Assembly (NCBI GenBank): GCA_046581525.1
Contig: JAYGGC010000278.1
Coordinates: forward strand, 7,740-71,739
Direction: 5' to 3'
From: Roseibacillus sp.
Lineage (GTDB): Bacteria > Verrucomicrobiota > Verrucomicrobiia > Verrucomicrobiales > Akkermansiaceae
DNA length: 64,000 nt
Below the pieces are notes generated by a model. It was not told the origin of the DNA and made no database searches. It worked only from the letters and a program-made list of their open reading frames with translations. The position numbers and the translations under genes are program-made. Of the stretch, positions 6,186-52,208 are shown piece by piece; the stretch's first letter is position 1; each line of letters begins with the position of its first letter.

Positions 6186-6836
6186 TCAGGGGGCACTGAA
6201 AACAGCTCTCATAAACTGCCTGTCATCGAACGACGCTGGCGTGGCACTGCGCCAGGTGGCGGTGGCGGTTCCGTCGCCAGGAAAGATGGTGCGCGGTGAA
6301 GCCCGGCCCGCTGTCCCAGAGTTCCAACCCTCGCGAGAATTCGACAGTGGTGGTCACCTGCGCCGCCAGGCTGTAGGCAAAAGGAGATCACATTCTCCTG
6401 GCCCGGCGTGCCCCCGGCCACTCCACTCGCTGCCCAACTGGACGAATCGTTGTGTTCGGGACTGACGCCGGGAGCGGTCAACACCAGGGACACTCCGCTT
6501 CCCGCGGCCTCCACCGGCCACGGCGCGAGATTGTCGTAGGTGAACTCGATGAGCGCCGTGCCGAGGATGTTGGAAACCCGAACCTGTTCCCCGCCATCAT
6601 CCAGCTTGCCGGTATACTGACCCGCAACAGGGAGCCCCATTCCATAGCGAAACTCGAAGGCCGCGAGGTCTTCGACCGCAAGGCGAGAACTGGAAACATG
6701 GGGAGAGGGAGGATTTAGTCGCAGGCTTGGGGGACTCGGCCTGCGGGGAGGCATCGATGTTGTGCCCTCGGAAGAGATTTTCCACATTGCTCCGCTAAAT
6801 CCAAGGTCGAACTGGGCAGCCAGCCGACTCGCTGGG
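6186..6836 (-). pseudogene. Decayed C-terminal remnant of a lamin-tail-domain-like secreted protein
   Basis: Only the second half of the LTD-like pattern is present (FEFRYGMGLPVAGQYTGKLDDGGEQVRVSN...IEFTYDNLAPWPVEAAGSGVSLVL...WAASGVAGGTPGQEN). A protein-like tail (IFPGDGTATATWRSATPASFDDRQFMRAVFSAP*) continues in another reverse frame. There is no plausible N-terminus. Confidence 0.4.
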
Positions 6837-21495: not shown

Positions 21496-22914
21496 CTACG
21501 CGAAGATGTCCTTGGCCACTTCCCCGTGCACGTCGGTGAGGCGGAAGTCGCGACCGGCGTAGAGGAAGGTGAGCTTTTCGTGGTCCAATCCGAGCAGGTG
21601 CAGGATGGTGGCATGCCAGTCGTGAATGTGCATCTTGTCCTCCACCGCTTCGTAACCGTGCGCATCGGTGGCGCCATACTTGAAGCCGCCCTTCACGCCA
21701 CCCCCGGCCATCCAGGTCGTGTAACCCTTGTTGTTGTGATCGCGACCGTCGCCGTTTTGTCCGTGCGGCGTGCGTCCAAACTCGCCGGCCCAGATCACCA
21801 GGGTATCCTTGAGCATGTCTCGCTGTTTCAAATCGGCGAGAAGACCGGCGATCGGCCTGTCGATCTCATTGCAGCGCGCGGGCAAGTCGTTGGTGATGTT
21901 GCGGTGGTGATCCCAGTTGCTGTGGGAGAGTTCCACGAAACGCACTCCCGCCTCCACGAAGCGTCTCGCAAGGAGACACTGCCGGCCAAAGCGATCGGTC
22001 TCGCTTCCATCGATGCCGTAGAGTTCGAGGGTCTTCCTGGACTCGCTGTCGATGTCCATCAACTCCGGAACTTCAGCCTGCATGCGGAAGGCCAGCTCGA
22101 AGGACTCGATCACGCCTTCCACCTCGGGGTGGTGAACGTCGCGCTCCAGTTTGGCGCGGTTCAAGGACTGCACGAAGTCCAGTTGCATGCGCTGGAGTTC
22201 GTTATCGAGCTTGGGATTCTTGATGTTTGGAATCCTGGGCTTTTGGGGGCCGCGGGGGCGTCGTCCACCGCCGCCACGACTGCCCGAGCCGAAACGCGCG
22301 GCCTGATAGATGGCGGGGAGAAAGGCGCTCCCGAAGTGCTGGGCTGCTCCGTTGGGCGGATTGAGCGCCACGAACCCGGGCAGGTTGGCATTCTCGGTGC
22401 CGAGTCCGTAAAGACTCCACGCTCCCAGCGACGGTCGCACAAACTGGGAATTCCCGGTGTGCATCATTACCTGCGCGGGCGGGTGATTCGGCACGTTGGT
22501 GTGCATCCCGCTCAGGATGCAAAGGTCGTCAGCGTGCGTCGCGATCTCCGGCATCAGTTCCGAAATCCACAGTCCGCTCTCGCCGTGCTGTGAGAACTCC
22601 CAGGGCGAACCCATCAACCTGCTGCTCCGTCCCCGGCCATATTTGCCGGACTTGCCATCGTCCTTCTGAAGCTGCGGCTTGTAGTCGAAGGTATCGACGT
22701 GGGAAGGCGCCCCTCGCATCGAGAGGAAAATGACGCGCTTCGCCCGCGGCGTGAAGTGAGGTTCCTTCGGCGCAAGTGGATTGGTTTTCACACCCACCGC
22801 CCCGGCGGCACGGGCCTGTTGGTCTGCCAACGCGGCAAAGGCGAGGTAGCCAAAACCGCTCGAGATCGACTTGAGAGCCCTGCGGCGAGAGATGAGATGT
22901 TCAACGTTGGTCAT
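21496..22914 (-). CDS. DUF1501 domain protein (sulfatase-like fold, Tat signal)
   Basis: The Tat motif is SRRRALKSISSGFGYLAFAAL. Characteristic blocks are RAKRVIFLSMRGAPSHVDTFDYKP and RDHNNKGYTTWMAGGGVKGG. Confidence 0.9.
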   Translation of the reverse strand: MTNVEHLISRRRALKSISSGFGYLAFAALADQQARAAGAVGVKTNPLAPKEPHFTPRAKRVIFLSMRGAPSHVDTFDYKPQLQKDDGKSGKYGRGRSSRLMGSPWEFSQHGESGLWISELMPEIATHADDLCILSGMHTNVPNHPPAQVMMHTGNSQFVRPSLGAWSLYGLGTENANLPGFVALNPPNGAAQHFGSAFLPAIYQAARFGSGSRGGGGRRPRGPQKPRIPNIKNPKLDNELQRMQLDFVQSLNRAKLERDVHHPEVEGVIESFELAFRMQAEVPELMDIDSESRKTLELYGIDGSETDRFGRQCLLARRFVEAGVRFVELSHSNWDHHRNITNDLPARCNEIDRPIAGLLADLKQRDMLKDTLVIWAGEFGRTPHGQNGDGRDHNNKGYTTWMAGGGVKGGFKYGATDAHGYEAVEDKMHIHDWHATILHLLGLDHEKLTFLYAGRDFRLTDVHGEVAKDIFA

Positions 22915-22934
22915 CGAAAATCGGGAGTAATGGA

Positions 22935-25403
22935 CTAGTTCAAGAAGCGAAACTCGGCGGAGGCCAGCAGGCCCTGGCAGAACGAACTGAGGGCGAGGTA
23001 GCCCGCGCGCTCACGGCTTTCTCCCTTCTTCTGGGCCGCCGCCATGAAGCTCCACAGAAAGCTCGTCGAGTTTTCCAGTTCATCCTTCGTGGCGAGCCGG
23101 CCGTAACAAATCTTGAAGGCCAGCGAGAGACGCTCCCTGGGAGTCTCGGCCTCGCCGAACAGGCGCCGCGCCATGGCGTCGCTCTGCTGCAGTACAAACA
23201 GGTTGTTCATGAGATAGAGGGCCTGGCCCGGCACGTTGCTCGACTCGCGCGCTCCGGTCACCATGTTCGGATCGGACGGATCGAAGAGCGCCAGTGATTC
23301 CGGAAGTGAGTCCCGCACGAATGGAAGATACACGGAGCGATAGGTGGTGGGCCGATTGAAGGTCTCCGGGCTCATGCGGCGACCGATGCCGGAATCTCCA
23401 CTCTGCGCCACGATCGATCCGTGGGGTCGCACAAGATCCATCTTGCCACTCGCCACCAGCATCGCGTCGCGCAACGCCTCCGCATCAAGTCGCCGCGGGG
23501 TGGCCCGCCAGAGCAGCGCGTTGTCGGGATCCTTGGTGTAGGCCACCTTGTTGAATTCCGAGCTCATGTGGTAAGTCCGCGTCATCACAAGCTCACGGAT
23601 CATGGTCTTCACCGACCAACCCTCTTCCATGAAACGCAACGCCAGGTAGTCCAGGAGCTCCGCGTGACTCGGGGCCTGACCGGTCGTCCCGAAGTTGTTC
23701 AAGGACGTCACAATCCCCTGTCCAAAGATCTTTTGCCAGATCCGGTTCACCATCACGCGGGCGGTGAGCGGATTCTCTTCGGAAGTGAGCCACTGAGCGA
23801 GCTCAAGCCGGCCGCTCCCGTCGTCCGGAAGGGAACTCGGCGTGCCGGGGTGATGAAGCACTTGCAAAAAGCCACGCTCCACTTTCTGAGCCGGCTTATC
23901 CAATTCGCCGCGGACCAGCACGGTTGGCTGAACCGGTCGCGAATAGTCCTGCACACCCATGGTGAGGGATTTCGAAGATCCATCGGAGTTGATTCCATTC
24001 AGGCGGGCCCGAAGTTGGGCGAGGGTGGTGCGAAGCCGCAGGATTTGTTGCTGGTTGCTTGGCGCTCCCTGCGCTCCCTGGGTGCGACTGCGGCGACTCT
24101 GCGCCTGGAGCTCCGCCATCCGGTCTTGCGAGTCGGCCAGGCGATTTCGCATCGACTCCATCTCCCGCGTGGAAACAGTCTTCAATGGGGTCTCGTCCGC
24201 GATCGGCAACTCCAGCAGCTTCGTCCCGCGACGATTCACGATCACGTTGACTGTCCCGAAGTAGGTCCTCGTGCTCTGGAAGATTCCCGAGAGCGCATAG
24301 TAGTCCGCGGTCGGGATGGGATCAAACTTGTGGTCGTGGCACCGCGCACAGGAAACGGTGAGACCGAGAATTGCCTGGGTGGTCGCATCGATCTGCTCGT
24401 CCGCCAGATCGATGGCGAACTGCCGCGGGTTGCGCTCATTCAGCCCCTTGGGACCGATCGCCAGGAAGCCGGTCGCGATGAGGTTTTCCTGCCACTCCTC
24501 GTCGCTCTCGATCTTCAGCAGGTCCCCCGCGATCTGCTCCCGCACAAAACGATTGTAGGGCTTGTCCTTGTTGAAGGAATCGATCACGTAGTCGCGATAG
24601 CGCCAGGCGTGCGGAAGGGACATATTGACCTCCTTGCCGGTCGATTCCGCGTAGCGCGCGACGTCCAGCCAGTGCCGGCCCCAGCGCTCGCCAAATTGTG
24701 GACGGGCGAGGAGCTCGTTGACCTTGGCGCGATAGGCCGCCTCCGCGTCCTTGCGCCAGGCAACTCCATAGGCCTCGATTTCCTCCACGGTGGGCGGCAG
24801 GCCGATCAGATCGAAGTAGAGGCGCCGCAGAAGAACATCCGGGCCGGCATCCCGCGCGGGCGACAACTCGTTTTCATCCAACCGGGCGAGGATAAACCGG
24901 TCGACGTCCGACTTGCTCCACTCAGGATCCATCACCTCGGGCGGGGCGACTTGCACCGGCTTCTGGAAGGACCAGAACTTGCGGCCTTCCTCGATGTCGA
25001 TCTCCGTCTTGACCACCAGTTTCTCCGCCACGCGCGGATCCGGTGCGCCCATCTCGATCCACTTCTTGAAGTCTGCGATCACACTCGCCGGCAGCTTCCG
25101 CTTCGGCGGCATTTCGTAATCTTCGTCCGCCCAATTGATGGCGGTCCACAAGAGGCTCTCATCCGGTTTGCCCGGGACGATCACTTCTCCCGAGTCTCCC
25201 CCATGGCGCAGCCCGGCACGAGTGTCGAGTTGCAGCCCTCCCTTGATCTTCTCGTCCGCAGAGTGGCACTTGTAGCAATGTTCCGCAAAGGCAGGACGGA
25301 TCTTCGCTTCGAAGAAGTTGATCTGCTCGCTGCTCAGCTCGTCTTCGCCAATTGCGAGCGGGGCTGCGAGCAGCAGGAGGGCACTGGTGGATCTCAGGTT
25401 CAT
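22935..25403 (-). CDS. PSCyt (planctomycete cytochrome c) / DUF1549 / DUF1553 protein
   Basis: It has a signal peptide and a CYKCHSADEKIKGGLQLD haem-binding-like motif. CARCHDHKFDPI is the DUF1549/1553 hallmark. It lies directly upstream of the DUF1501 partner. Confidence 0.9.
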   Translation of the reverse strand: MNLRSTSALLLLAAPLAIGEDELSSEQINFFEAKIRPAFAEHCYKCHSADEKIKGGLQLDTRAGLRHGGDSGEVIVPGKPDESLLWTAINWADEDYEMPPKRKLPASVIADFKKWIEMGAPDPRVAEKLVVKTEIDIEEGRKFWSFQKPVQVAPPEVMDPEWSKSDVDRFILARLDENELSPARDAGPDVLLRRLYFDLIGLPPTVEEIEAYGVAWRKDAEAAYRAKVNELLARPQFGERWGRHWLDVARYAESTGKEVNMSLPHAWRYRDYVIDSFNKDKPYNRFVREQIAGDLLKIESDEEWQENLIATGFLAIGPKGLNERNPRQFAIDLADEQIDATTQAILGLTVSCARCHDHKFDPIPTADYYALSGIFQSTRTYFGTVNVIVNRRGTKLLELPIADETPLKTVSTREMESMRNRLADSQDRMAELQAQSRRSRTQGAQGAPSNQQQILRLRTTLAQLRARLNGINSDGSSKSLTMGVQDYSRPVQPTVLVRGELDKPAQKVERGFLQVLHHPGTPSSLPDDGSGRLELAQWLTSEENPLTARVMVNRIWQKIFGQGIVTSLNNFGTTGQAPSHAELLDYLALRFMEEGWSVKTMIRELVMTRTYHMSSEFNKVAYTKDPDNALLWRATPRRLDAEALRDAMLVASGKMDLVRPHGSIVAQSGDSGIGRRMSPETFNRPTTYRSVYLPFVRDSLPESLALFDPSDPNMVTGARESSNVPGQALYLMNNLFVLQQSDAMARRLFGEAETPRERLSLAFKICYGRLATKDELENSTSFLWSFMAAAQKKGESRERAGYLALSSFCQGLLASAEFRFLN

Positions 25404-37860: not shown

Positions 37861-38523
37861 CTACTTTTTCTTCTCCTCTTTCGGAACCTTGGGCTCCGGC
37901 TTGAATCGCGCCGGCGCCTGGTCGAGATACTTGGTGTAGGCATTGGAGCTCACCCGTTCCGCCACAATCTTTCCCTCTGGATCGTAAAGGCGCAGGGCGT
38001 AGCCCCGGTAGGCTTCACCCACCTTCCGGTTGTTGTAGAAACCGGCTTCGTACTTCTCCACGCAATCAGAATTGAGGAAGGACTCCACAACAGACTTGAT
38101 CCCGATTGTTCCACTGGTCTTGAGCGCGGAGATCCACACCAAGAGACAGTAGTACTCCGTTTCCTTGGGCACATTGGTCAATTCCAAGATCACGGTTTTG
38201 ATGTTCTTATCGAGACCAGAATCCTTGTAGGACTCCAACCTGACCTTTACTTCGAGCGGCTTGTAGATGACGAGATTCTTGATGTACTCCCGATCCTTCT
38301 TGCTGAGCTTCTCCAGCTTGATCTGGTGGATCTTCCGCTTGATTTCAATCTTAACCCAGCCGTCGCCCTTCTCCTTCAACACCCCGGTCAGGGTCCTTCC
38401 ATCACTGCTGGTCCACACTCGTGACTTCTCCTCGGCGGGGAGGGAAATGCTGGTGAGCACCACCAGCAGAATCGACAGCAACACCCTCTCCGATATCATC
38501 CACCGGTACGACATGGAGTTCAT
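37861..38523 (-). CDS. Secreted SHD1-domain (SLA1 homology domain 1-like) protein
   Basis: RVWTSSDGRTLTGVLKEKGDGWVKIEIKRKIHQIKLEKLSKKDREYI fits the bacterial SHD1 pattern. The tail is Lys-rich. GC is visibly lower than in the neighbours. Confidence 0.6.
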   Translation of the reverse strand: MNSMSYRWMISERVLLSILLVVLTSISLPAEEKSRVWTSSDGRTLTGVLKEKGDGWVKIEIKRKIHQIKLEKLSKKDREYIKNLVIYKPLEVKVRLESYKDSGLDKNIKTVILELTNVPKETEYYCLLVWISALKTSGTIGIKSVVESFLNSDCVEKYEAGFYNNRKVGEAYRGYALRLYDPEGKIVAERVSSNAYTKYLDQAPARFKPEPKVPKEEKKK

Positions 38524-39672: not shown

Positions 39673-39871
39673 GGACCAATTTCCAAATGGAAGTCACGAG
39701 CCAGTTTCTGAAGATCCCACAAGTCCTCGGCACCTGGCGGGGTCGAGCATCCTGGATCCGGGAGCAAGCCCCGGTCCTTGCCTGTCTCCCGTTGCGGCCT
39801 CCCCTTGCTGCCACAGTAAAAAGGCCACAAGCCGGAAACCTCCGACCTGTGGCCTGAAAGCATTGTTGGAA

Positions 39872-42800
39872 TCAAACCTCGTCGGGACCCATCCAGCGGA
39901 AGTTGGACACGCGGAAGCGGCGTCCGAAGTCGACGAAGCTCTCACCTTGCTCAAGGAGCGGGTTGAGTCCGGTCACATCGGGGTTCACTGGCTCCGGCGT
40001 GCGCTGCACGATGGCTTCGCACCAGGCGCGGGCTCTCACATTCCCCTGTCCGTCCACGGACTCACCGTAGGCCCGCACCACGAAGGTGTCCGAGCGGGGA
40101 CGGAGTGTGGAACCAATCACCTGGAGGATATCTCCCTGGGTCAGGTAGCCGGGAATTCCCCAGGCCACGGAGTCCGGCTTCAGGGTCTGGTCCAGGCGCG
40201 TGGCGTCGCTCATGTTGTCGAAGCGAACGGGAGGAAGATCATTCTCGTTATTAATCTTGAGCGGGCCGGTATCGAACTCGGCATTGACTCCGGCGGCGGA
40301 GAGGGCCGCCTCGATGGGGCCTTTCTCTCCGTGCACGTCGTCCACCAGGCGGCGGTTCACAAAGTCGGACAGGCCAAAGAAGGGAGCCCGTTCTTTCACC
40401 TCGCGCACGATCTCCTCTGCCAGCACATCGAGATCCCCGTCCGAGAGACTGCGGAAACCACCGGTGGCTTCCTTGTCCTCGGGCCCCGCATCCAACCACT
40501 CGCCCTGGGGCGGGTTGAGCAGGCGCGGGAAGGGAACCGCATATTCGCTGCCGTAACCCGTGTCGGCGGTGGTGGCGAGGACTGCCTTCCAGGCTTCCTT
40601 GCTCACCGAGTGGACATTGAAGCCACCCTCCAGCCACAGCTGGGAAGCTGCCCGGTGGAAGTCCGTGATATCGCTCTCCACCTTACTGCCGGAACCATAG
40701 AGACCGATCCGGCCATTGGGGAGCGGGTTCTCATCGGGATTCTCAAGGAAGTCCGACTTGCGACCGGAAGAGCCGGTCGAAACAAAGAAGTTGTCCCAGA
40801 GATTGAAGTTCACCTCGTAGCTCAGATCGTAGACCACAAAGTGATCGGTCGGGCGCTCAAAGAGAATCTGGCGCGTCAGCATGGCCCAGTAGTCGGGTCC
40901 CCGTCCGGAAGTCCGGCCATCGGCCCAGCCAAAGAGATACTGGTTCCAGCCATGGTTGGCCTTTTCGCGGGAAGACTGCAGGACCGGGCTGGTGGTCTTG
41001 CGACCCACTCGGGGATCCGCCAGCGAGTTGCCGATCGCATAGCTCGGATGCCAGCCAAACTCCGAGAGCTTGAGATGACGCATGTAGCCAATGGACGGAA
41101 TCCCGATTTCCTGGCGAGGCACTTCAAAGAGAACCACTTCGTCAGGACCGGCAACCGGCGCTCCGAACGGATTTCCGAGCATCCGGCCATCTTTGGGGCG
41201 GGGCATCATGGCCTGCCAGGAAACCGCCGAATCGAAGAGATCCCTGGTGTACACTCCGTAGAAGTGCGGAGGCTGGTCTGTCACGTTGTCCCAAGGGGTC
41301 CGGCAGAAGTAGGCTGCCCGCGGGTTCCAAGTCCCGACGATCGAGGTCTGCAAGTGATGCGGCGTGCGCCGGAGTTGTCCGGAGCCGCGAATGTTGGAGG
41401 CGTGCTCCTGCCACCAACGGAACCGGAAGCCATCGCGAGTCCGCGTATCCGGAATGGCCGTGCCCGGCAAGCGGTCGCGGCTGCTCCGCAGCGGATAGAC
41501 GGGGACGGGGTTGCGCGCGCTCCACTGCACCGGCAATTCGTCACTACCACCAGCCTGCACCGAGGTGTTCGCATAGACGATGGACTGCAGGTTGTTGAAA
41601 CTCGAGTCGGTGGCGCGGCCTCGCACGCTCGTGGCGTCTTTCAGGGACATCATGTAGTTATCACCACCAGACTGATTGCCCGGTCCCGGAAACTCCACAA
41701 AGCTGGCCAGCGGACTGGTGTGCTTCACCTGCATATCCTGCCAGAAGTAGATCGCAGGATCGGGCGCCACCGACGACGACAAGGTGTTGCGGAACACGTT
41801 TGAGATCTCATACTGCTGCGTGCGCTCGGGGCTGAAGACCAGGGTTTCGCCCGGCAACATCGTCGTCGGCGCGATGCTCATCAGGATCCATCCCACATAG
41901 TGCCCGGGGCTCTGGTCCGGTGCGCTCGGCTTGGCGCCCACCTTGGTCGAACCTCGGCCAAAGGGAATGGGGACATTCCGGCGAGTGCCATCGGCACCCG
42001 TGACCTGCACGTCCTTGTTCCCGTTCACAAAAATGGTCGCCACCATCGGGCCGGTCTGCAACTCAACGTTGAAGGGATTCCAAAGCGCGATGCGCGGATA
42101 GTAGCAGATCCGCAGGTTGTACTGGGTGTTGGGCGCCCCGGGGGTATCCGGATAGGAGGCCAGGTTGTAGTAAATCGAGCCCTCCACCATCACCGGGAAC
42201 ATATTGGGTTTATCGAAGGGAAGGAACGAGGCGGGGCGAAGGTTGCCACCGTCATAGACGTTGACCCCGTCGTTCATTCCCCGCAACGCACTCTGTTGGG
42301 CTGGTGCCGGCGCAATCATGTTGTGTTCGCTCTCCGAGTAGCCAAAGCGGCTCCCCATCAGCGACCAGTTACGCAGCAGGGCGAAGGTCGGGGCGATGTC
42401 GCGGTACTTGGTCTGGGCCCAACGGGTGCCTTGTTCGTCGGCTACATTCGGGTTCGCCGGTCCGATCATGTTGTCCAGGTCATTCAATCCCTGGGAGACG
42501 ATCCGGCCGTTCGCACGGAGATCCGAAATGCGGCCCCTGCTGTGCAGGAAGGCCGTCAGGTCGCGCTGCAGTCCTCCCTGCCGCACATTGGCCAGCACCG
42601 CCTTGGAATTGGTGGTGATGTGGTGGTAGGCGACTTTCATGTCATCCTTGTCGATGTTCTGCGCCAGTCCCAGAGTCTTGTGCGAAACCGTCCGGCGAGC
42701 CTCGTCATCGTCGAGCTCACCCAGTCCATCGATCTTTTCTTCCGCGGTATCCTGCGCGTTGACCAAGCGCTCCATCCCATCCGGACTGTTTCCCCGCCGG

Positions 42801-43531
42801 GGATTATCAAGGCTGTATTCGTCGACCTGGGCGACGTGCGCTTTCACGCCGAGATCACCGACCCAGAACGCATATCCGCCAGTCTCGCGTCCATTCTTCC
42901 ACGTCGCAACACGAGGCGCGAGGACTTCCTGGGAAACTCCCCCTCCCGCTCCATCTTCCACCGTGCCGGGACCAACCAACAGAATTGCACTTTCCTCGAG
43001 GCGCGCATTCTGCGCACTGATCATATCATCGCCTCTCTCCAGTCTGCCGCCTTCGTTGCCGCTCACAAGGTAGTTGAGCACTTCCTTCTCACGGTCATAT
43101 CCTTCCTCAAAGCGCCGGTCGCTCAGTCCACCCTCGAGGTCATTGCGCACCCAGGGAGACTTGTTCTCTACGCTCCCCGTGTCGCCCAGCCACTCCGTGC
43201 TCCACACCCCGGTCCAGAAGGGTTGATCCACCCCTTCGATGGAGAGCGATTCCGGACTTTCATCCAGGATTCCTGCCGCCGCCGAGACTCGCTGGTCGGG
43301 GCCCAATTGCTTCTGCAGATCACCAATGGCCAACATCAGGGCCAGGCGTGCGTTTGCTCTTGCTTCCAGTTTGGCCAGTTCCGCCGATGAGCTCCGCACC
43401 GTTACCGCCGAGAGGGAGAGGAGACCAATCGCGATCAGGGAAAGGAGTACCAGAATCGTGACGGTCGTGATCAGGGCGAAGCCTTTGCGTGCTCCTGCCC
43501 TGCGAGTTCTCAAAACAGATTTCGTCTTCAT
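39872..43531 (-). CDS. Giant (1219 aa) protein with GspK-like minor-pseudopilin N- and C-termini, tandem paralogue A
   Basis: The N-terminus is RKGFALITTVTILVLLSLIAIGLL (prepilin-like helix with no Glu at +5, as in GspK). The C-terminus shows GGFNVHSVSKEAWKAVL, ERAPFFGLSDFVNRRL and LRPRSDTFVVRAYGES...ARAWCEAIVQR. About 900 aa in between are unassigned. Confidence 0.8.
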   Translation of the reverse strand: MKTKSVLRTRRAGARKGFALITTVTILVLLSLIAIGLLSLSAVTVRSSSAELAKLEARANARLALMLAIGDLQKQLGPDQRVSAAAGILDESPESLSIEGVDQPFWTGVWSTEWLGDTGSVENKSPWVRNDLEGGLSDRRFEEGYDREKEVLNYLVSGNEGGRLERGDDMISAQNARLEESAILLVGPGTVEDGAGGGVSQEVLAPRVATWKNGRETGGYAFWVGDLGVKAHVAQVDEYSLDNPRRGNSPDGMERLVNAQDTAEEKIDGLGELDDDEARRTVSHKTLGLAQNIDKDDMKVAYHHITTNSKAVLANVRQGGLQRDLTAFLHSRGRISDLRANGRIVSQGLNDLDNMIGPANPNVADEQGTRWAQTKYRDIAPTFALLRNWSLMGSRFGYSESEHNMIAPAPAQQSALRGMNDGVNVYDGGNLRPASFLPFDKPNMFPVMVEGSIYYNLASYPDTPGAPNTQYNLRICYYPRIALWNPFNVELQTGPMVATIFVNGNKDVQVTGADGTRRNVPIPFGRGSTKVGAKPSAPDQSPGHYVGWILMSIAPTTMLPGETLVFSPERTQQYEISNVFRNTLSSSVAPDPAIYFWQDMQVKHTSPLASFVEFPGPGNQSGGDNYMMSLKDATSVRGRATDSSFNNLQSIVYANTSVQAGGSDELPVQWSARNPVPVYPLRSSRDRLPGTAIPDTRTRDGFRFRWWQEHASNIRGSGQLRRTPHHLQTSIVGTWNPRAAYFCRTPWDNVTDQPPHFYGVYTRDLFDSAVSWQAMMPRPKDGRMLGNPFGAPVAGPDEVVLFEVPRQEIGIPSIGYMRHLKLSEFGWHPSYAIGNSLADPRVGRKTTSPVLQSSREKANHGWNQYLFGWADGRTSGRGPDYWAMLTRQILFERPTDHFVVYDLSYEVNFNLWDNFFVSTGSSGRKSDFLENPDENPLPNGRIGLYGSGSKVESDITDFHRAASQLWLEGGFNVHSVSKEAWKAVLATTADTGYGSEYAVPFPRLLNPPQGEWLDAGPEDKEATGGFRSLSDGDLDVLAEEIVREVKERAPFFGLSDFVNRRLVDDVHGEKGPIEAALSAAGVNAEFDTGPLKINNENDLPPVRFDNMSDATRLDQTLKPDSVAWGIPGYLTQGDILQVIGSTLRPRSDTFVVRAYGESVDGQGNVRARAWCEAIVQRTPEPVNPDVTGLNPLLEQGESFVDFGRRFRVSNFRWMGPDEV

Positions 43532-43532
43532 T

Positions 43533-43556
43533 GGTCAGTTGGTCAGTCGGTCAGTG
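43533..43556. repeat. Triple 8-nt tandem repeat abutting the start codon of paralogue A
   Basis: The units are ggtcagtt, ggtcagtc and ggtcagtg. Paralogue B has a single copy at the equivalent site. Confidence 0.7.
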
Positions 43557-43766
43557 TATTCGCAATATACATACGAGAATCGGTTCTCGCGCCAGAAAAA
43601 TCTCTGTATTCACCAAGTATTCTCAGATTTCCGTTCAGTTCCAGAGCACCCACCCTGCGCTGACGCTCCAAAAACAGAGCTTCAAGGCCAATATCTGCCA
43701 TCAAATCACAGCGCCGCCCGGAGGTCAATTCCGTCTCATTCTCCGCAATTCTTGCTCCTCCCCGGC

Positions 43767-46700
43767 TTAAATCTCGTCCTCACTCAACCAGCGGAAGCTC
43801 ACCATCTGGAACTGGCGTCCGAAGTCGATGGCGCCCTTGACGTTCAGGATCGGATTGAGGCCGCTTTCATCGGGATTCACCGGCTCCGGAGTGCGCTGCA
43901 CAATCGCCTCGCACCAGGCCCGGGCCTGCACCTTCCCCTCGCTATCCAGTGACTCGCCGTAAGCCCGCACGAGGAAAGTGTCCGACCGCGGACGGAGGGC
44001 CGAACCGACGAGCTGCACGAGGTCTCCCTGGGTCAGGTAACCGGGAATCCCCCAGGCCACCGAGTCCGGCTTCAGGGTCTGGTCGAGCCGGGTGGCGTCA
44101 CTCATGTTGTCGAAGCGAACCGGTGGAAGATCTTCATCGTTATCGATCGCGTACGGTCCCGCATCCCACCTCGCGTTGATGCCGGAGGCGGAGATCGCCG
44201 CCTCGAGGGGCCCCTTCTCGCCGTGCGCGCTGTCCACCAGGCGCCGGTTGATGAAGTCCGAGAGACCGAAGAACGGAGCGCGCTCCTTGACCTCGCGCAC
44301 AATCTGCTCCGCAAGGGCATCAAGTTCTTCCTCGGAGAGACTGCGGAATCCGGCCATCGCTTCCTTGTCGTCAGCTTGCGCGGCGAGCCACTCCCCCTCC
44401 GGTGGGTTGAGAACCCGTGGAAATGGGATGGCCCCCTTGCTGCCGTAGCCGGTGTCCATCGTGGATGCCAGGAAGGCCTTCCAGGCATCCTTGCTGATGG
44501 AGTGCACGTTGAAACCACCCTCTAACAGAAGCTGACGGGCGGCACGGTGAAAGTCGTTGATCTCGCTCTCCACCCGGTCGCCGGATCCGTAGAGGCTGAT
44601 GCGGCTGTTGGGCAACGGGTTGTCATCCGGATCGTCCAGGAAGTCCGACTTGCGCGCCGCGTCCCCGGTCGACAGGAAGTAGTTGTCCCACAGATTGAAG
44701 TTCACCTCGTAGCTCAGGTCATAGACCACGAAGTGATCGGTGGGACGCTCGAAGAGAATCTGCCGGAAGAGCATCGCCCAGTAGTCCGGTCCCCGTCCGG
44801 AGACCCGGCCATCGGCCCAGCCAAAGAGATACTGGTTCCAGCCGTGATTGGCTCGTTCGCGGGACGACCGCAATACCGGGCTGGTCGTCTTGCGGCCCAC
44901 CCGGGGATCGGCCAGCGAGTTGCCGATCGCATAGCTCGGATGCCAGCCAAACTCCGAGAGCTTGAGATGGCGCAGGTATCCGAGGGACGGAATGCCGATC
45001 TCGGATCGCGGCACTTCGAAGAGCACCACCTGGTCCGCACCGGAAAGTGGCTGTCCAAACGGATTGCCCAGCTGCTTGCCGTCCTTCGGCCGGGGCATCA
45101 TCGACTGCCAGGACACCGCGGGATCGAAGAGGTCGCGGGTATACATCCCGAAGAAGTGCGGGGGCTGATCCGTCACGTTATCCCAAGGGGTTCGGGAGAA
45201 GTAGGCGGCCCGCGGATTCCAAGTCCCGATCAAGGAAGTCTGCAGGTGCTGCGGTGACCGCCGAAGTTGGCCCGATCCTCGCTGGTTGGACGGGTGCTCC
45301 CGCCACCAGCGCAACCGGAATCCGTCCCGCGTGCGCACATCCGGAATGGCCGTGCCCGGCAGGCGATCGCGGCCGCTGCGCAGCGCATAAACCGGGACCG
45401 GGTTGTTGGCACTCCATTGCACGGGCAACTCGTCGCTCCCACCGGCCTGCAGCGAGCAGTTGGCGTAGACGATCGACTGGAGATTGTTGAAGTTCGTGTC
45501 GGTGACCTGCCCGCCAACACTGGAAGTATCCTTGAGCGACATCATATAATTGTCGCCCCCGGACCGGTTGCCTGGTCCCGGAAATTCGATGAAGCTCTCC
45601 GGCGACCGCGAGTGCTTGGCCTGCATGTCCTGCCACCAGTAGAGGGAGGGATCGGGTGCAACTGAAGGAGAGAGCCTGTTACGGAAGACGTCTGAGATCT
45701 CGTACTGCTGAGTACGCTCCGGACTGAAGACCAGAGTCTCTCCCGGGGCCATCGTGACCGGCGCGATGTTGCAGAGAATCCATCCCACATAGTGTGCCGG
45801 ACTCACATCCGGGGCACTCTGAACCGCACCCACCTTGGTCGAACCGCGCCCGAAGGGAATGGGGGCACTCCGGCGACTTCCGTTGGAATCTGTGAGCTGC
45901 ACCTCCTTGTTTCCGTTCACAAAGATGGTCGCCACCATCGGCCCGGTCTTCAATGCGACATTGAAGGGATTCCAGAGTGCGATCCGCGGATAGTAGCAGA
46001 TCCGCAGCGTACGCTGGGAATTCGGGGTCCCGGGTCGATCCGGATAGGAGGCCAGGTTGTAGTAGAGCGAGCCTTCCACCATCACCGGGAACATGTTCGG
46101 GGTATCGAGGAGAAAGGGAGAGGCGGGGCGCAGATTGGCGCCGTCATAGACATTGATGCCGTTGTTCATCCCGCGCAGCATGGTCGGATCGCTCACCCCA
46201 GCCGGCACGATCATGTGGTGCTCCTTCTCCGACCAGCCCAGCTGTCTTCCGATCTGCGCCCACCTGCGCAGCAGGAGGAAGGTCGGGGAGATATCGCGAT
46301 ACTTGGTATCGGCCCAGTTCGTCCCCTGCTCGGAAGCCATCCTGGGGTTCGCCGGTCCGATCATGTTGTCCAGGTCAGCAAGTCCCTGGGAGACCACCTT
46401 GCCATTGACACGAAGATCCGCAATGGGACCGCGGCTGTTGAGGAAGGCCGTCAAGTCGCGCTGCAGCCCGCCCTGCCGGACGTTCACCAGGATGCTCCTG
46501 GAATAGGTCGTCATCGAGTGGAAGGCGCGCTTCAGGTCGTTCTTGTCGATGCCTTCGGCCAGGCCGGCAGTCCTGTCCGTGATCGTTCGGCGGGCCTCCT
46601 CTTCCTTCAGTTCACCCAGTCCATCGATCAATGCTGCTTCCGCGTCCAGGGCGTTCACCAGACGCTCCATGCCGTCGGGGCTGTTGCCACGCCGGGGAGC

Positions 46701-47414
46701 ATCGAGATTGTAGTCGTCCACTTGCGCCACGTGGGCCTTTACCCCGAGGTCCCCCACCCAAAAGGAATACGCGCCCGTCACCCGGCCATTCCTCGAGGTC
46801 GCCACGCGGGGTGCACTCACCCTCTGAAATTCGCCGGGGCCCGCCGACCCCGCACCAACCAGGAGAATTGCGTCGGCCCCGAGCTTGGCATGTTGCGCAC
46901 TGATGAAGTCGTCGCCCAACTCCGCCCTGCCCCCTTCATTGCCACTCACGAGGTAAATGAGCACCTCCCTCTCGCGGTCATAGCCTTCTTCAAAACGCCG
47001 GTCACGGAGTCCACCCTCGGTGTCGTTCCGCACCCACGGTGACTTGTTCTCATCGCTTCCAGTATCACCCAGCCATTCCGTGCTCCACACTCCGGTCCAA
47101 TGCGGTTGGTCCACCCCTTCGATGGAAAGCGAGTCGGGACTTTCATCCAGGATGCCGGCCTCGGCCGAGATGCGTTGGTCGGGGCCGAGTTGTGTTTGCA
47201 ACTCACCGAGCGCAAGCATCAGCGCCAGGCGGGAATTCGCTCGCGCTTCAAGTTGCGCCAGTTCTGCCGATCCACTCCGCACCGTCAGCGATGAGAGCGA
47301 AAGGAGACCAATCGCAACCAGCGACAGGATGACTAGGATCGCAATGGTGGTGATGAGAACGAACCCTCGGCGGGCCCCTCCTCCGAGCTTGCTCAAAACA
47401 GATTTCATCTTCAT
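43767..47414 (-). CDS. Giant (1215 aa) GspK-like protein, tandem paralogue B
   Basis: It is collinear with paralogue A over its full length, with roughly three quarters or more of residues identical by eye. It has the same N-terminal helix (RRGFVLITTIAILVILSLVAIGLL) and the same C-terminal motifs. Confidence 0.8.
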   Translation of the reverse strand: MKMKSVLSKLGGGARRGFVLITTIAILVILSLVAIGLLSLSSLTVRSGSAELAQLEARANSRLALMLALGELQTQLGPDQRISAEAGILDESPDSLSIEGVDQPHWTGVWSTEWLGDTGSDENKSPWVRNDTEGGLRDRRFEEGYDREREVLIYLVSGNEGGRAELGDDFISAQHAKLGADAILLVGAGSAGPGEFQRVSAPRVATSRNGRVTGAYSFWVGDLGVKAHVAQVDDYNLDAPRRGNSPDGMERLVNALDAEAALIDGLGELKEEEARRTITDRTAGLAEGIDKNDLKRAFHSMTTYSRSILVNVRQGGLQRDLTAFLNSRGPIADLRVNGKVVSQGLADLDNMIGPANPRMASEQGTNWADTKYRDISPTFLLLRRWAQIGRQLGWSEKEHHMIVPAGVSDPTMLRGMNNGINVYDGANLRPASPFLLDTPNMFPVMVEGSLYYNLASYPDRPGTPNSQRTLRICYYPRIALWNPFNVALKTGPMVATIFVNGNKEVQLTDSNGSRRSAPIPFGRGSTKVGAVQSAPDVSPAHYVGWILCNIAPVTMAPGETLVFSPERTQQYEISDVFRNRLSPSVAPDPSLYWWQDMQAKHSRSPESFIEFPGPGNRSGGDNYMMSLKDTSSVGGQVTDTNFNNLQSIVYANCSLQAGGSDELPVQWSANNPVPVYALRSGRDRLPGTAIPDVRTRDGFRLRWWREHPSNQRGSGQLRRSPQHLQTSLIGTWNPRAAYFSRTPWDNVTDQPPHFFGMYTRDLFDPAVSWQSMMPRPKDGKQLGNPFGQPLSGADQVVLFEVPRSEIGIPSLGYLRHLKLSEFGWHPSYAIGNSLADPRVGRKTTSPVLRSSRERANHGWNQYLFGWADGRVSGRGPDYWAMLFRQILFERPTDHFVVYDLSYEVNFNLWDNYFLSTGDAARKSDFLDDPDDNPLPNSRISLYGSGDRVESEINDFHRAARQLLLEGGFNVHSISKDAWKAFLASTMDTGYGSKGAIPFPRVLNPPEGEWLAAQADDKEAMAGFRSLSEEELDALAEQIVREVKERAPFFGLSDFINRRLVDSAHGEKGPLEAAISASGINARWDAGPYAIDNDEDLPPVRFDNMSDATRLDQTLKPDSVAWGIPGYLTQGDLVQLVGSALRPRSDTFLVRAYGESLDSEGKVQARAWCEAIVQRTPEPVNPDESGLNPILNVKGAIDFGRQFQMVSFRWLSEDEI

Positions 47415-47459
47415 GGGTCAGTCGGTTAACGTATTGCCATTATACATACCGTATCCACA

Positions 47460-47492
47460 TTGTAAATACGGTATATTCTTTGTAAATACGGT
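47460..47492. promoter_or_regulatory. 13-bp direct repeat (20-bp period) in the divergent gap between paralogue B and the hydroxylase gene
   Basis: TTGTAAATACGGT occurs at 47460-47472 and 47480-47492. An upstream ATACCGTAT is the reverse complement of the ATACGGTAT core. Confidence 0.3.
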
Positions 47493-47679
47493 CATTCCCG
47501 ACTGCAAATCCAAAAGGGAACCCTCAAGCTTCAAAAACAGGGGTTTTAGGGCCAATCTCAGGGTCCTCTCACAGGCTTCCCTCTGCTCAAATTCCGCATA
47601 TATTGCCCACGCTGCTACCCGATTTGGGGAATCCCGACCTCACCAGTCTGATTCTCCGGCCCGCAGCAATTTCCTGCCC

Positions 47680-49820: not shown

Positions 49821-52208
49821 CTATCTCTGAGACACTTTCAGTCGCAAGATCAGCGAGGACCGGCTGAACGGCAGCAAGGCACGGTAAACAACCCGCTCGC
49901 CGGTGGTCTCAATCGTTGGCTCCGTGCGCACCAGACTCAGCAGCTCCAGACTGGATTCCCAATTGGTCGCCTCAAGGATCTCAAGCTCATACCGAAGTTC
50001 GGGTGTCTCGTAGCTCCCAAACCCCGTCTCTACTCCACCCCGCCAACGGTTGTAATGAACCTCCAGCGCGTCCCCCACCCAAACCACGTCAAAGTAGGGC
50101 TTCGAGCGATCATCATTGGGATTGGTCACCCCCGCAAATTCATGGAAGTTGTTCCAACCGTCCCCATCACTGTCTTCCTCGTAGGTCCCGCTGCCAACCG
50201 GGCCTCCCAGGTGGAACACGTGCCAGGTCTCAAACGTCGGCGCACCGGGTGCAATCACCGTGACCCCTGCTCCCTCCGAAAGGATTGCTCCTACCGGATT
50301 CCAGACCTGGCAACGATACCCTGCAGAACCGCTGAGGGAGAGGGGCGCCGGGAGCCCCCCAATCAGGAGATTTGCAGTGCGGCTTCCCTCGATCCCACCA
50401 CCATCGCTCAGCGCAACGCCGTTACGCAGCCACTGGTACGAGATCGGCTCACTCGCTATCACGCTCACCGAATAGGACGCCACTCCGCCATCCCAGAGGA
50501 ACACGGGGACCGGATGCCTGGTCACGGTCGGCGCCAATTCAACCGTAAGCTGAACCGAACTCTCGACTGTTCCCGCGCTGTTCTTCACCTCGCACACGTA
50601 GTCCCCCGTGTCACTTAGCCCGACATTCTCAATCGTGAGGAGAGGCGAAGAGGCTCCCTGCAACCCGCTTCGGTTCTCCAATGCGACACCGTTGCGGTAC
50701 CACTGAAACGCCGGCGGCGGAGACCCGCTCGCCTCCACCATCCAGGATACCGAATCTCCTGGATCGCTCGTCTCGTTCGCCGGAGGTTGGCTGTGGATCT
50801 CGGGCACGCGTGGCGCCAGTTCTCCCTGAAAGTCTTCAATCTTCTGCCGCAGGGTTGCCACCACCGCTGACTCCAACGCAGCCACATTGTGACGTTCCTC
50901 CGGATCATCCACCAAATCGTACAACTCGGGTTCCGCGAGCCCCTCCTCCCACAGCAACTTCCAACGCCCGTCCCGGATCGCAAACTGAGGGGCATTTGAA
51001 AGAGGACCCACTGCGTCTGAGCGATACTCCCACACGATCGGGGTCGCGCGCGCCGAGGGCGTTCCCTTCAATACCTCCAGCCGGTCTTCCCCATCCAGGA
51101 AGGGCGGCACGAATTCTCCCAGGAGGGTCGCAATACTCGGCAGCCAATCGCTTGAGCAGATCACCGAGGTCGTGTCCACCGTCCCCGCGGGAATCACTCC
51201 CGGCCAACGAGCAATACACGGCATCCGAACTCCACCCTCGTAAATGCTTCGTTTCCGCCCCCGGAACCGGCCCGTGTTTCCGCACCCCGTCGAAGACGAG
51301 AGATTGAGACGGTAATCTTCCGGTCCGTTGTCACTGGTAAAGAGGAGCAGGGTATTCTCTGCCAGCCCTGCCTGCTCGAGATAATCCAGTAACCTCCCGA
51401 CAGCTCCATCGACACTCGTCATCACTGCATTGTATTCCAGGAATCGCTCGTGCGCGTCTGGCATGGAGACGCAATAGTCCCGCATGTAGGAATCAAAATC
51501 TTCCACCGGAAATGTCTCTCCGTCGTAGACCCGCTTCTGCGCACTGGAAGCGACCAACGGATCGTGCATCTGGAAGAACCAGAGGTTCAGGTAAAAGGGT
51601 TGATCACCGTTGGCATCAAGGAACCCGATCGCGGCATCCACAAAGTAATGAGAAGAGTAGGACCAATAGTGGTTGTTGATCGGCCAGGAAGTCCGAAATT
51701 CGTCGATGCCGTAGTCGGTTAGCCTTGGTGCATTACTCCCTCTGCTCAAGTGCCACTTTCCAAAGTGCCCCGTCCGATAACCCGCCCGCTTCGCGACATC
51801 CGTGACCAGCACGACATCGGTATCGAGATAATTCGGCATGTTCCGTCGCATGTTCACACGCAGATTGCTACTGATGAAATCGTGAATCCCAAACCGCGAC
51901 GGCTGGTGACCCGTCATGAACGAGACTCTCGTCGGCGAACACACCGGTGAGGCCACATAGAAATTCTCAAAGACGCGCCCTTCCGACACCAGCCGATCAA
52001 GGTTCGGTGTTTTCACATGCGGATGACCCAATGCCGCGATGTCCCAACCCATGTCGTCGACCAGGATCATGATCACATTCGGCGGGTCTCCCTCTCCCTG
52101 CGCGGTGCCTCCCACTCCACTTACCAGGGAAACGAGCATCAGCCACACCACAACTTGTCCGGCATTCGCGCAGAGCAATGAGGATAGCGGGAAATGGACT
52201 CTCATCAA
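49821..52208 (-). CDS. Sulfatase fused to two immunoglobulin I-set-like domains and a TSP3-like calcium motif
   Basis: The sulfatase core shows NVIMILVDDMGWD and CSPTRVSFMTGH. Ig-like blocks are PPAFQWYRNGVAL...LTIENVGLSDTGDYVCEVKNSAG and ISYQWLRNGVAL...GYRCQVWNPVG. The calcium motif is DSDGDGWNNFHEFAGVTNPND. Confidence 0.85.
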   Translation of the reverse strand: MMRVHFPLSSLLCANAGQVVVWLMLVSLVSGVGGTAQGEGDPPNVIMILVDDMGWDIAALGHPHVKTPNLDRLVSEGRVFENFYVASPVCSPTRVSFMTGHQPSRFGIHDFISSNLRVNMRRNMPNYLDTDVVLVTDVAKRAGYRTGHFGKWHLSRGSNAPRLTDYGIDEFRTSWPINNHYWSYSSHYFVDAAIGFLDANGDQPFYLNLWFFQMHDPLVASSAQKRVYDGETFPVEDFDSYMRDYCVSMPDAHERFLEYNAVMTSVDGAVGRLLDYLEQAGLAENTLLLFTSDNGPEDYRLNLSSSTGCGNTGRFRGRKRSIYEGGVRMPCIARWPGVIPAGTVDTTSVICSSDWLPSIATLLGEFVPPFLDGEDRLEVLKGTPSARATPIVWEYRSDAVGPLSNAPQFAIRDGRWKLLWEEGLAEPELYDLVDDPEERHNVAALESAVVATLRQKIEDFQGELAPRVPEIHSQPPANETSDPGDSVSWMVEASGSPPPAFQWYRNGVALENRSGLQGASSPLLTIENVGLSDTGDYVCEVKNSAGTVESSVQLTVELAPTVTRHPVPVFLWDGGVASYSVSVIASEPISYQWLRNGVALSDGGGIEGSRTANLLIGGLPAPLSLSGSAGYRCQVWNPVGAILSEGAGVTVIAPGAPTFETWHVFHLGGPVGSGTYEEDSDGDGWNNFHEFAGVTNPNDDRSKPYFDVVWVGDALEVHYNRWRGGVETGFGSYETPELRYELEILEATNWESSLELLSLVRTEPTIETTGERVVYRALLPFSRSSLILRLKVSQR

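Follow-up and report, generated by a model that had tools for sequence, protein, structure and literature searches.

The 64,000-nucleotide stretch of Roseibacillus sp. DNA analyzed here (contig JAYGGC010000278.1, positions 7,740 to 71,739, referred to as the window) encodes a tandem pair of proteins of about 1,200 residues. The reading that we favor, with moderate confidence, is that both are modular minor pilins or pseudopilins of the GspK/PilX class, which would carry a novel module at the tip of a filament whose machinery is encoded elsewhere. Gene 1, the downstream paralogue (39872..43531, minus strand), encodes 1219 amino acids, and gene 2, the upstream paralogue and likewise a candidate for a giant GspK-like modular pseudopilin (43767..47414, minus strand), encodes 1215 amino acids. 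Both were defined by their open reading frames (ORFs) and translations. The reading draws on the homology of the N terminus to GspK, a conserved motif at the predicted cleavage site, the architecture of a large protein family, purifying selection, two operons in which relatives stand next to pseudopilin genes, and a neighborhood that holds no filament machinery.

Results

The N-terminal Signal and Helix

Both proteins begin with a basic 17-residue leader that ends in Gly and is followed by F-(A/V)-L-I-T-T and a hydrophobic stretch. In gene 1 the prepilin-type (class III) signal and the α1 helix span 43304..43531 (minus strand). The leader, residues 1–17, reads MKTKSVLRTRRAGARKG, cleavage is predicted between G17 and F18, and the helix extends to about residue 76. 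The corresponding segment of gene 2 lies at 47187..47414 (minus strand), with the leader MKMKSVLSKLGGGARRG followed by F-V-L-I-T-T, and was assigned from the translation, the N-terminal NCBIfam matches and a six-frame motif scan. The gene 1 product was matched by the NCBIfam profiles T2SS_GspK (NF037980; E = 8.9e-4) and Verru_Chthon_A (TIGR02600; E = 1.4e-4), in both cases over residues 16–80 only. The T2SS_GspK scores of the two proteins were 18.9 and 13.9 bits against a cutoff of 130 and covered only profile positions 2–66. When the family alignment A2 (55 sequences) was compared by hhalign with an alignment of 38 GspK sequences seeded with GspK of Escherichia coli K-12, 65 N-terminal columns were matched with a probability of 90.8% and an E value of 1.2e-6.

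The predicted cleavage site is strongly conserved. The motif G-F-[AST]-L-[VI]-x-T, i.e. Gly at −1 and Phe at +1, was present in 156 of 180 family sequences, 97 of which have Arg or Lys at −2, and none of the sequences checked in this survey (n = 180) has Glu at +5. The GspK pattern G-V-A-L-L-x-V mirrors this motif. Sixteen other family members were tested against the two NCBIfam profiles; 14 gave N-terminal matches like those of the window pair, and two gave none. In the AlphaFold model the N terminus forms a continuous helix of 57 residues (model residues 2–57). Because the Gly-Phe pair is near-invariant and the similarity runs through the amphipathic half of the helix, these sequence features argue for a true class III signal, recognized by prepilin peptidase, and not a generic anchor. 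An earlier note on this DNA, made from the letters alone, had described a basic stretch, G-F-(A/V)-L-I-T-T and a hydrophobic helix in both proteins and had read them as a GspK-type N terminus lacking Glu+5; the description was confirmed and the reading supported.

Paralogy and Selection in the Tandem Pair

The two products align over their full length with 937 identities in 1220 positions (77%) and 6 gap positions (BLASTP), and the aligned codons are likewise 77% identical at the nucleotide level. The best-conserved stretch comprises residues 801–900, with 93% identity. By the Nei-Gojobori method the nonsynonymous divergence (dN) was 0.15 and the synonymous divergence (dS) 0.96, which gives a dN/dS ratio of 0.155; the ratio did not exceed 0.38 in any 100-codon window. 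From these values both copies are kept functional by purifying selection, and the duplication is old. The GC content at the codon positions of both genes is typical of coding sequence in the window, which has 60% GC. A protein 99% identical to the gene 1 product, P0001, is encoded on a Joint Genome Institute (JGI) metagenome contig with the same tandem pair. In a neighbor-joining tree, both copies join another protein, P0003, in a three-way split that is unresolved and lies within a Roseibacillus-like clade. The earlier note had placed both ORFs exactly as found here, estimated their identity by eye at three quarters or more and put the duplication unit at about 3.9 kb; the measured repeat unit is 3,883 bp.

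Each gene is preceded by a leader of about 235 nucleotides, at 43532..43766 for gene 1 and 47415..47649 for gene 2 (both minus strand), and each was recognized by its homology to the other. The leaders are degraded relative to one another, with 140 of 209 aligned positions identical (67%). Their global alignment score of −13 lies about 5 standard deviations above that of shuffled sequences (−48 ± 6.9, maximum −26), which upholds the homologous leader of about 230 bp proposed in the earlier note. The gene 2 leader contains a promoter-like TTTACA-16-TATAAT at 47466–47439 (11 of 12 matches) and a second such site, TTTACA-16-TACAAT, at 47486–47459. A direct repeat, ACCGTATTTACAA in two copies (47440–47500, minus strand), overlaps both of these σ70-like promoters and is followed by ATACGGTATGTATAATGG. 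The gene 1 leader retains TCGTATGTATATTGCGAATAC, which encloses a −10-like TATATT, and has three copies of GAATAC. The leader repeats may serve as an operator for a shared regulator. A terminator-like hairpin (39822..39855, minus strand) with a 15-bp stem, 9 GC pairs and a subsequent T-run stands directly 3′ of the gene 1 stop codon. Rfam gave no match in the 8.4-kb region that includes both leaders.

Size, Distribution and Architecture of the Family

A word-indexed search returned at least 844 full-length relatives. Those with a named source all belong to Verrucomicrobiota (Akkermansiaceae, Luteolibacter, Haloferula and Roseibacillus), and the relatives are labeled "hypothetical protein" or occasionally "PulG". 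An exhaustive search of representatives clustered at 50% identity yielded 4,374 matches at E ≤ 1e-3, 3,479 at 1e-10 and 1,818 at 1e-30. A scan of species-representative genomes yielded at least 599 matching stretches, the best 80 of which are all from Verrucomicrobiota except for one probably misbinned metagenome-assembled genome. Several genomes carry more than one copy. No dedicated Pfam or NCBIfam model for the family was found. By sequence similarity the family is a very large and separate Verrucomicrobiota superfamily that comprises no fewer than 4,374 clusters when grouped at 50% identity. The survey of distribution and copy number that the earlier note had suggested thus found the family in Verrucomicrobiota in every sample examined, with multiple copies in several genomes. 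The size of the family, its conserved partner gene and its closest curated relative (see below) had been missed by that note.

When 121 full-length cluster representatives were aligned to gene 1 by phmmer, residues 1–330 and about 900–1219 were covered in more than 90% of them. Residues 330–900 were covered in 35–67%, with a minimum at 560–720. Because coverage is high at both ends and low in the middle, the family is described as having conserved N- and C-terminal modules and a variable center. The central region of gene 1 (about residues 330–900; 40835..42544, minus strand) is mostly β-structure, has no recognized fold and is the least alignable part in the superfamily. The conserved C-terminal module of gene 1 (about residues 900–1219; 39875..40834, minus strand) contains GGFNVHS, RAPFFGLSDFVNRRL, RSDTFVVRAYGE, AWCEAIVQR and FGRRF..FRW, as seen in alignment A5. 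The module of gene 2 (about residues 896–1215; 43770..44729, minus strand) was placed by the pairwise alignment and by the same family alignment.

Predicted Structure and the C-terminal Motifs

An AlphaFold2 model of gene 1 residues 20–1219, built with the family alignment, was confident and formed a single body (predicted local distance difference test, pLDDT, 89.6; predicted template modeling score, pTM, 0.90). After the N-terminal helix the architecture is mainly β. A separate model of the C-terminal residues 930–1219 reached a pLDDT of 82. Foldseek found nothing at E ≤ 0.001 for the full model, either in the PDB or among the viral structures of BFVD, and nothing at the same threshold for the C-terminal model in the PDB. 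The best PDB neighbors of the full model were ApaG-like and CBM-like β-sandwiches at non-significant E values of 0.04–1. Because no significant neighbor was found in the PDB or BFVD, the modeled body is called an unrecognized fold as far as these two databases show. The unassigned core of the earlier note thus kept its status after the structure prediction and search that the note had called for.

The C-terminal motifs quoted in the earlier note are all present in the translations. Three of them align in order, though below significance, with the best-conserved motifs of GspK, namely FNLN, the helix-hairpin-helix (HhH) helix and S-x-x-F. The family blocks dGaFNVNS, A..IV.EVK.RGPF.sLaDF and l.aRSDTF.IRaYGE are paired with cFNLNAL, A..Li..R...g..v..f and l.v.S.YF.l. 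of GspK, respectively. Among 44 family C termini, HHH_6 was matched in nine (best E = 0.042) and T2SSK in two (best E = 0.064), all below threshold. A search of PDB sequences with the C-terminal profile gave noise only (a peroxiredoxin at E = 0.29 and the HhH region of Pol III α at E = 1.4), and the profile of the whole-family alignment gave no match at E ≤ 10 in the same set. For the region of residues 58–240, hhalign found no significant match to GspK. The C-terminal hints are consistent with an HhH-like element like that of the GspK α-domain and do not demonstrate one.

Genomic Context of the Homologues

The flanking sequence of about 165 homologue loci (about 2.3 Mb) was surveyed. Prepilin-type genes occurred within 6–10 kb of a homologue at six loci only, and a single GspG-like gene was found near a homologue. 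At two loci, L047 and L137, the family member stands in a pseudopilin operon. In L047 a GspH/cassette-D-like gene comes first, followed in turn by one B-like and one C/GspI-J-like gene, the gene for a 1,193-residue family member and that for a 247-residue partner protein. These genes abut or overlap on one strand, and the large gene takes the position of GspK. In L137 the family member comes first, then the partner and three prepilin genes, of which the first has a generic prepilin domain, the second is B-like (E = 6.9e-6) and the third is C-like (E = 2.8e-8); again all overlap or abut on one strand. The best matches of the prepilin neighbors at both loci are to the Verru_Chthon cassette proteins D, B and C, all below threshold (E = 2.4e-5 to 2.8e-8). 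The large proteins of L047 and L137 are distant homologues of the window pair. Through these two independent operons the family is linked to putative H/I/J-like pseudopilin triplets.

No match came from an initial metagenome scan in which only the L047 protein served as the query. The search for homologues of the C-like pseudopilin of L047 gave one distant match only, at L168, where a stand-alone triplet of prepilin-type genes (6633–8873; products of 244, 211 and 291 residues) has no large family member adjacent to it. The third product is 30% identical to the L047 protein. This triplet shows that the pseudopilins can be encoded away from the large gene.

The commonest neighbor of the homologues is a protein of about 250 residues with a Sec signal, encoded directly downstream at 47 of about 80 loci from genomes and at 54 of 80 from metagenomes. 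It lies, for example, at 13531–14292 in L001, 13532–14275 in L047 and 9492–10247 in L137, with about 100 other loci carrying it, and is triplicated in L031. No Pfam or NCBIfam family covers the partner, whose profile matched only de novo designed immunoglobulin (Ig)-like proteins among PDB sequences (8bl3, E = 4.9e-6). Like the window itself, the subclade closest to the window pair is without the partner.

Other neighborhoods are confined to a few lineages. Homologues in Luteolibacter, Haloferula and Roseibacillus (L001, L003, L021, L024, L033, L035 and L045) stand beside phosphate-scavenging genes of the types GDPD, PhoD, Metallophos, phosphodiesterase/Metalloenzyme and Exo_endo_phos, which may reflect a link to the Pho regulon. 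In L005/L007 and in L003 the homologue adjoins a Bat-like operon (MoxR AAA_3, DUF58, BatA/VWA, DUF4159, GATase1_like and TPR).

Surroundings of the Pair in the Window

The window was searched for secretion and pilus genes in three ways. Apart from the pair, no prepilin-type N terminus was found in the six frames of the 64-kb window. The E. coli proteins GspC to GspO gave nothing better than E = 0.29 against it in tblastn. A Pfam and NCBIfam scan of about 33 of the larger ORFs revealed no secretion or pilus component among them. Because no such component is present among the window genes, the label "orphan" given to the pair in the earlier note is correct, and the lack of nearby machinery, real for the window, is also the rule across the family loci.

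The scanned ORFs encode five sulfatases, PSCyt1/PSCyt2/PSD1 proteins with DUF1501, histidine kinases, DUF4432, an acyltransferase and NrdA/NrdB. An epimerase-like protein and an ATP-grasp ligase are encoded downstream of gene 1, and a fatty-acid hydroxylase gene is divergent from gene 2. At least five sulfatase genes are scattered across the window, and a PSCyt1/PSCyt2/PSD1 (DUF1549/DUF1553) protein is paired with DUF1501 at 21496–25403 (minus strand). This gene content is typical of polysaccharide degraders of the Planctomycetes-Verrucomicrobia-Chlamydiae (PVC) type and points to an origin in a Roseibacillus-like member of the Verrucomicrobiales. A protein of 795 residues (49821–52208, minus strand) combines a sulfatase domain with an Ig I-set domain, and its C-terminal tail (residues 677–704) weakly matches NF042425, "Amuc_1099 family pilus-like system protein", with 19.6 bits (cutoff 50; E = 5.4e-4). 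A lysine-rich ORF of 220 codons (37861–38523, minus strand) has a signal peptide, an unusually low GC content in the first two codon positions (0.48 and 0.34) and no family match. It was considered as a candidate for the conserved partner and rejected, as the hidden Markov model (HMM) of the partner did not match it (E > 10). Large neighboring ORFs that appeared about 25% identical in MAFFT were dismissed as alignment artefacts.

Discussion

Weighing the Evidence

Several results weigh against a pseudopilin assignment. Beyond about residue 80 no significant similarity to GspK or any pilin was found, in sequence or in structure. Neither window protein has a Pfam match at E ≤ 1, and this includes the GspK domains PF21687 (T2SSK_1st) and PF03934 (T2SSK). 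In hhalign the C-terminal 300 residues matched GspK with E values of 0.03–0.2 and a probability of about 1%. When the conserved blocks were cut out beforehand they fell in the expected order and register (P = 0.001–0.005), at probabilities of 7–19%, which is below significance. GspK, XcpX, ComZ and PilY1 are absent from the Foldseek matches of the full and C-terminal models. GspK is not in the top 50, although local alignment could miss a pilin sheet that a large insertion interrupts. Homologues of GspD, GspE, GspF or GspO were found at none of the about 165 loci (E < 1e-4), pseudopilin genes are adjacent to a homologue in only two of about 160 (L047 and L137), and the partner HMM has no match at E ≤ 10 in the window. 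The earlier note had claimed a GspK-like middle and C-terminal end, which was not supported: its proposed profile searches found GspK similarity in the N-terminal 65 or so residues and no significant T2SSK signal at the C terminus. A "GspK-like" C-terminal end is an interpretation and not an observation, as significance was not reached. Because of this, the insertion of about 900 residues into a GspK fold that the note suggested is plausible but unproven, and the adhesin or enzyme role it attached to the insertion was purely inferential.

The main alternative, which we regard as unlikely, is that the two products are envelope or membrane-anchored proteins, for instance an envelope or surface receptor or a structural protein. 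Their pilin-like N terminus, whether or not it is cleaved, would then be a mere signal anchor left over from a pilin ancestor, and they would act independently of any filament together with the 250-residue partner. More than 98% of the homologue loci lack adjacent genes for pilins or machinery, the commonest conserved neighbor is the Sec-signal, Ig-like partner and not a pilin, and Foldseek detects no pilin fold. PVC bacteria also have many orphan proteins with prepilin-like N termini. A generic anchor, however, would not be expected to have a near-invariant Gly-Phe at the predicted cleavage site or to resemble GspK through the amphipathic α1C over 65 columns, and the two independent operons tie the family to H/I/J-like triplets. 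Less probable still, and in our judgment improbable, is that the proteins are not binders but displayed or secreted enzymes acting, for example, on sulfated polysaccharides or phosphoesters. An active site formed by conserved polar residues, such as those of the L-K-L-S-E-F-x-W-H-P-S-Y-A-I-G-N-S-L-A-D-P-R block, is given equally little credence. The many invariant polar residues of the conserved blocks, the high conservation of residues 801–900 between the paralogues, the sulfatase-rich window and the GDPD, PhoD, Metallophos or phosphodiesterase genes beside several homologues would fit an enzyme. Against this, Pfam, NCBIfam, PDB sequences and Foldseek gave no match to an enzyme family, the best, non-significant structural neighbors are non-catalytic ApaG/CBM-type β-sandwiches, and the neighborhoods vary between lineages. 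Finally, tandem repeats of long units can come from assembly error, so the pair might be an assembly or annotation artefact, or a recent and decaying duplication, without distinct biology. This is exceedingly improbable, since the copies differ at 23% of their nucleotides, dS is about 0.96 with low dN/dS and both frames intact, the independent JGI contig has the same pair, and P0003 joins both copies in a three-way branch. It was excluded on the grounds of divergence with selection, the second contig and this branch.

A Model for the Paired Proteins

If the two products are minor pseudopilins, as we favor, a prepilin peptidase encoded elsewhere would remove the basic 17-residue leader after Gly17. 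The resulting α1 would be hydrophobic, begin with Phe and lack Glu5, as expected of the top-most subunit, and would dock on GspH/I/J-like (Verru_Chthon D/B/C-like) minor pseudopilins whose genes likewise lie elsewhere. The proteins would thereby be incorporated into a type 4 filament, i.e. a pseudopilus of a type II secretion system (T2SS) or a type IV-like pilus, in the cap position, with the globular body of about 1,100 residues exposed at the tip. This body would most likely serve for binding or recognition, and its lineage-variable, β-rich center, enclosed by the conserved N- and C-terminal modules, would set the specificity. With a promoter-like leader of its own, each paralogue would provide an alternative tip.

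GspK-like minor pseudopilins and modular pilins are already known as kinds of protein. The size of the superfamily, the unmatched fold, the habitual separation from pseudopilin genes and the conserved partner appear to be undescribed. A bolder proposal, which we put forward tentatively and with low confidence, is that the superfamily represents a previously unrecognized class of type 4 filament tip subunit. Its fold would be new, its genes would have become uncoupled from those of pilus operons, and it would work with a dedicated Ig-like partner. The conserved modules would serve as a scaffold and the center as an exchangeable recognition module, and the paralogues would form a tip repertoire for one filament machine, directed, for example, to different polysaccharides or surfaces.

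If the pseudopilin assignment is right, the family shows how abundant polysaccharide-degrading bacteria decorate their type 4 filaments, with unannotated cap proteins of about 1,200 residues that are encoded apart from the machinery and often in several copies per genome. The modular-pilin concept, which so far draws on a few Gram-positive pilins whose modules are recognizable, would extend across a phylum and to a far larger module, and the long-uncharacterized Verru_Chthon-type cassettes would gain a first functional handle. If the N terminus is a mere anchor, the proteins still form a large envelope protein family with an unrecognized fold. A dedicated profile model is warranted, as family members are at present annotated as "hypothetical protein" or mislabeled as PulG.

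Comparison with Known Systems

GspK is the largest minor pseudopilin, has an inserted domain and caps the tip of the pseudopilus (PMC7248040); the structure of the GspI-J-K complex is that of Korotkov and Hol 2008, as cited in the same paper. The window proteins resemble GspK in the leader ending in Gly with the subsequent (F/V)-A-L-(I/L/V), in the absence of Glu5, and in a long α1 with profile-level similarity (hhalign 90.8%). They also share the placing of extra mass in the globular part of the largest member of the set, the position of the L047 family member after H/I/J-like genes, and the weak FNxN, HhH and S-x-x-F matches in GspK order. They differ in being four times larger (about 1,200 compared with about 330 residues), in reaching 18.9 bits where the cutoff is 130, and in having neither T2SSK Pfam domains nor a Foldseek match to GspK. 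The family also almost never stands in a gsp or pil operon and usually has the gene of the 250-residue secreted partner instead. Membership of the pair in the GspK family was rejected on the 130-bit cutoff, the lack of PF21687 and PF03934 and the lack of a gspH-I-J cluster. Our literature search on GspK in Verrucomicrobia and on GspK-like minor pilins found nothing relevant.

Among curated families, the closest relative is Verru_Chthon cassette protein A (TIGR02600), which was flagged by TIGRFAMs and is functionally uncharacterized. It comes from the same phylum, is of similar length (profile of 1,296 positions) and is similar in the N-terminal 60 residues. The L047 and L137 neighbors best match cassette proteins B (TIGR02598), C (TIGR02599) and D (TIGR02596), below threshold, and one family member, P0116, is labeled Verru_Chthon cassette protein A in UniRef. 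The window pair, however, scored 19.9 and 9.4 bits against a cutoff of 332.3, over positions 1–59 of the 1,296 only, and HMMER detects no relationship in the remainder of the protein. Neither the pair nor about 98% of its homologues have B, C or D neighbors. None of 16 other family members exceeded 38 bits or aligned past the first 63 or so positions, and two had no match. As the window pair and these 16, very distant ones included, are far below the cutoff, membership in TIGR02600 was rejected. No paper mentioning TIGR02600 was found in a literature search on the Verru_Chthon cassettes.

The PilY1/PilC tip adhesins of type IVa pili are also large (PilY1 about 1,000 residues) and are found with the minor-pilin priming complex at the tip, but PilY1 carries a Sec signal and, at its C terminus, a β-propeller, where the window proteins have a prepilin-like N terminus. 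This type of adhesin was rejected for the pair, as there was no PilY1 match in Pfam, no β-propeller among the Foldseek matches and no Sec-type N terminus. The Thermus pilin ComZ carries a large inserted β-solenoid and illustrates that a very large insertion can be accommodated by the pilin fold; the window-protein models differ from it in having no ComZ-like Foldseek match.

Modular pilins with grafted binding modules are represented by PilB (vWA module) and PilC (Ig and lectin modules) of Streptococcus sanguinis (PMC9934059). Measured by this definition, the window pair has the class III-type signal, α1 and a large extra body, whereas a globular pilin half is not demonstrated. The PilB and PilC modules are recognizable domains encoded in a pil locus; the module of the window pair is much larger, its fold has no known neighbor, and no relationship to PilB or PilC was seen in sequence or fold. 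The likeness lies in the plan of the proteins, in which a class III signal and a pilin-type helix are joined to a large non-pilin module. The modules of PilB and PilC are thought to be displayed at the filament tip and provide a functional analogy for a binding role of the paired proteins described here.

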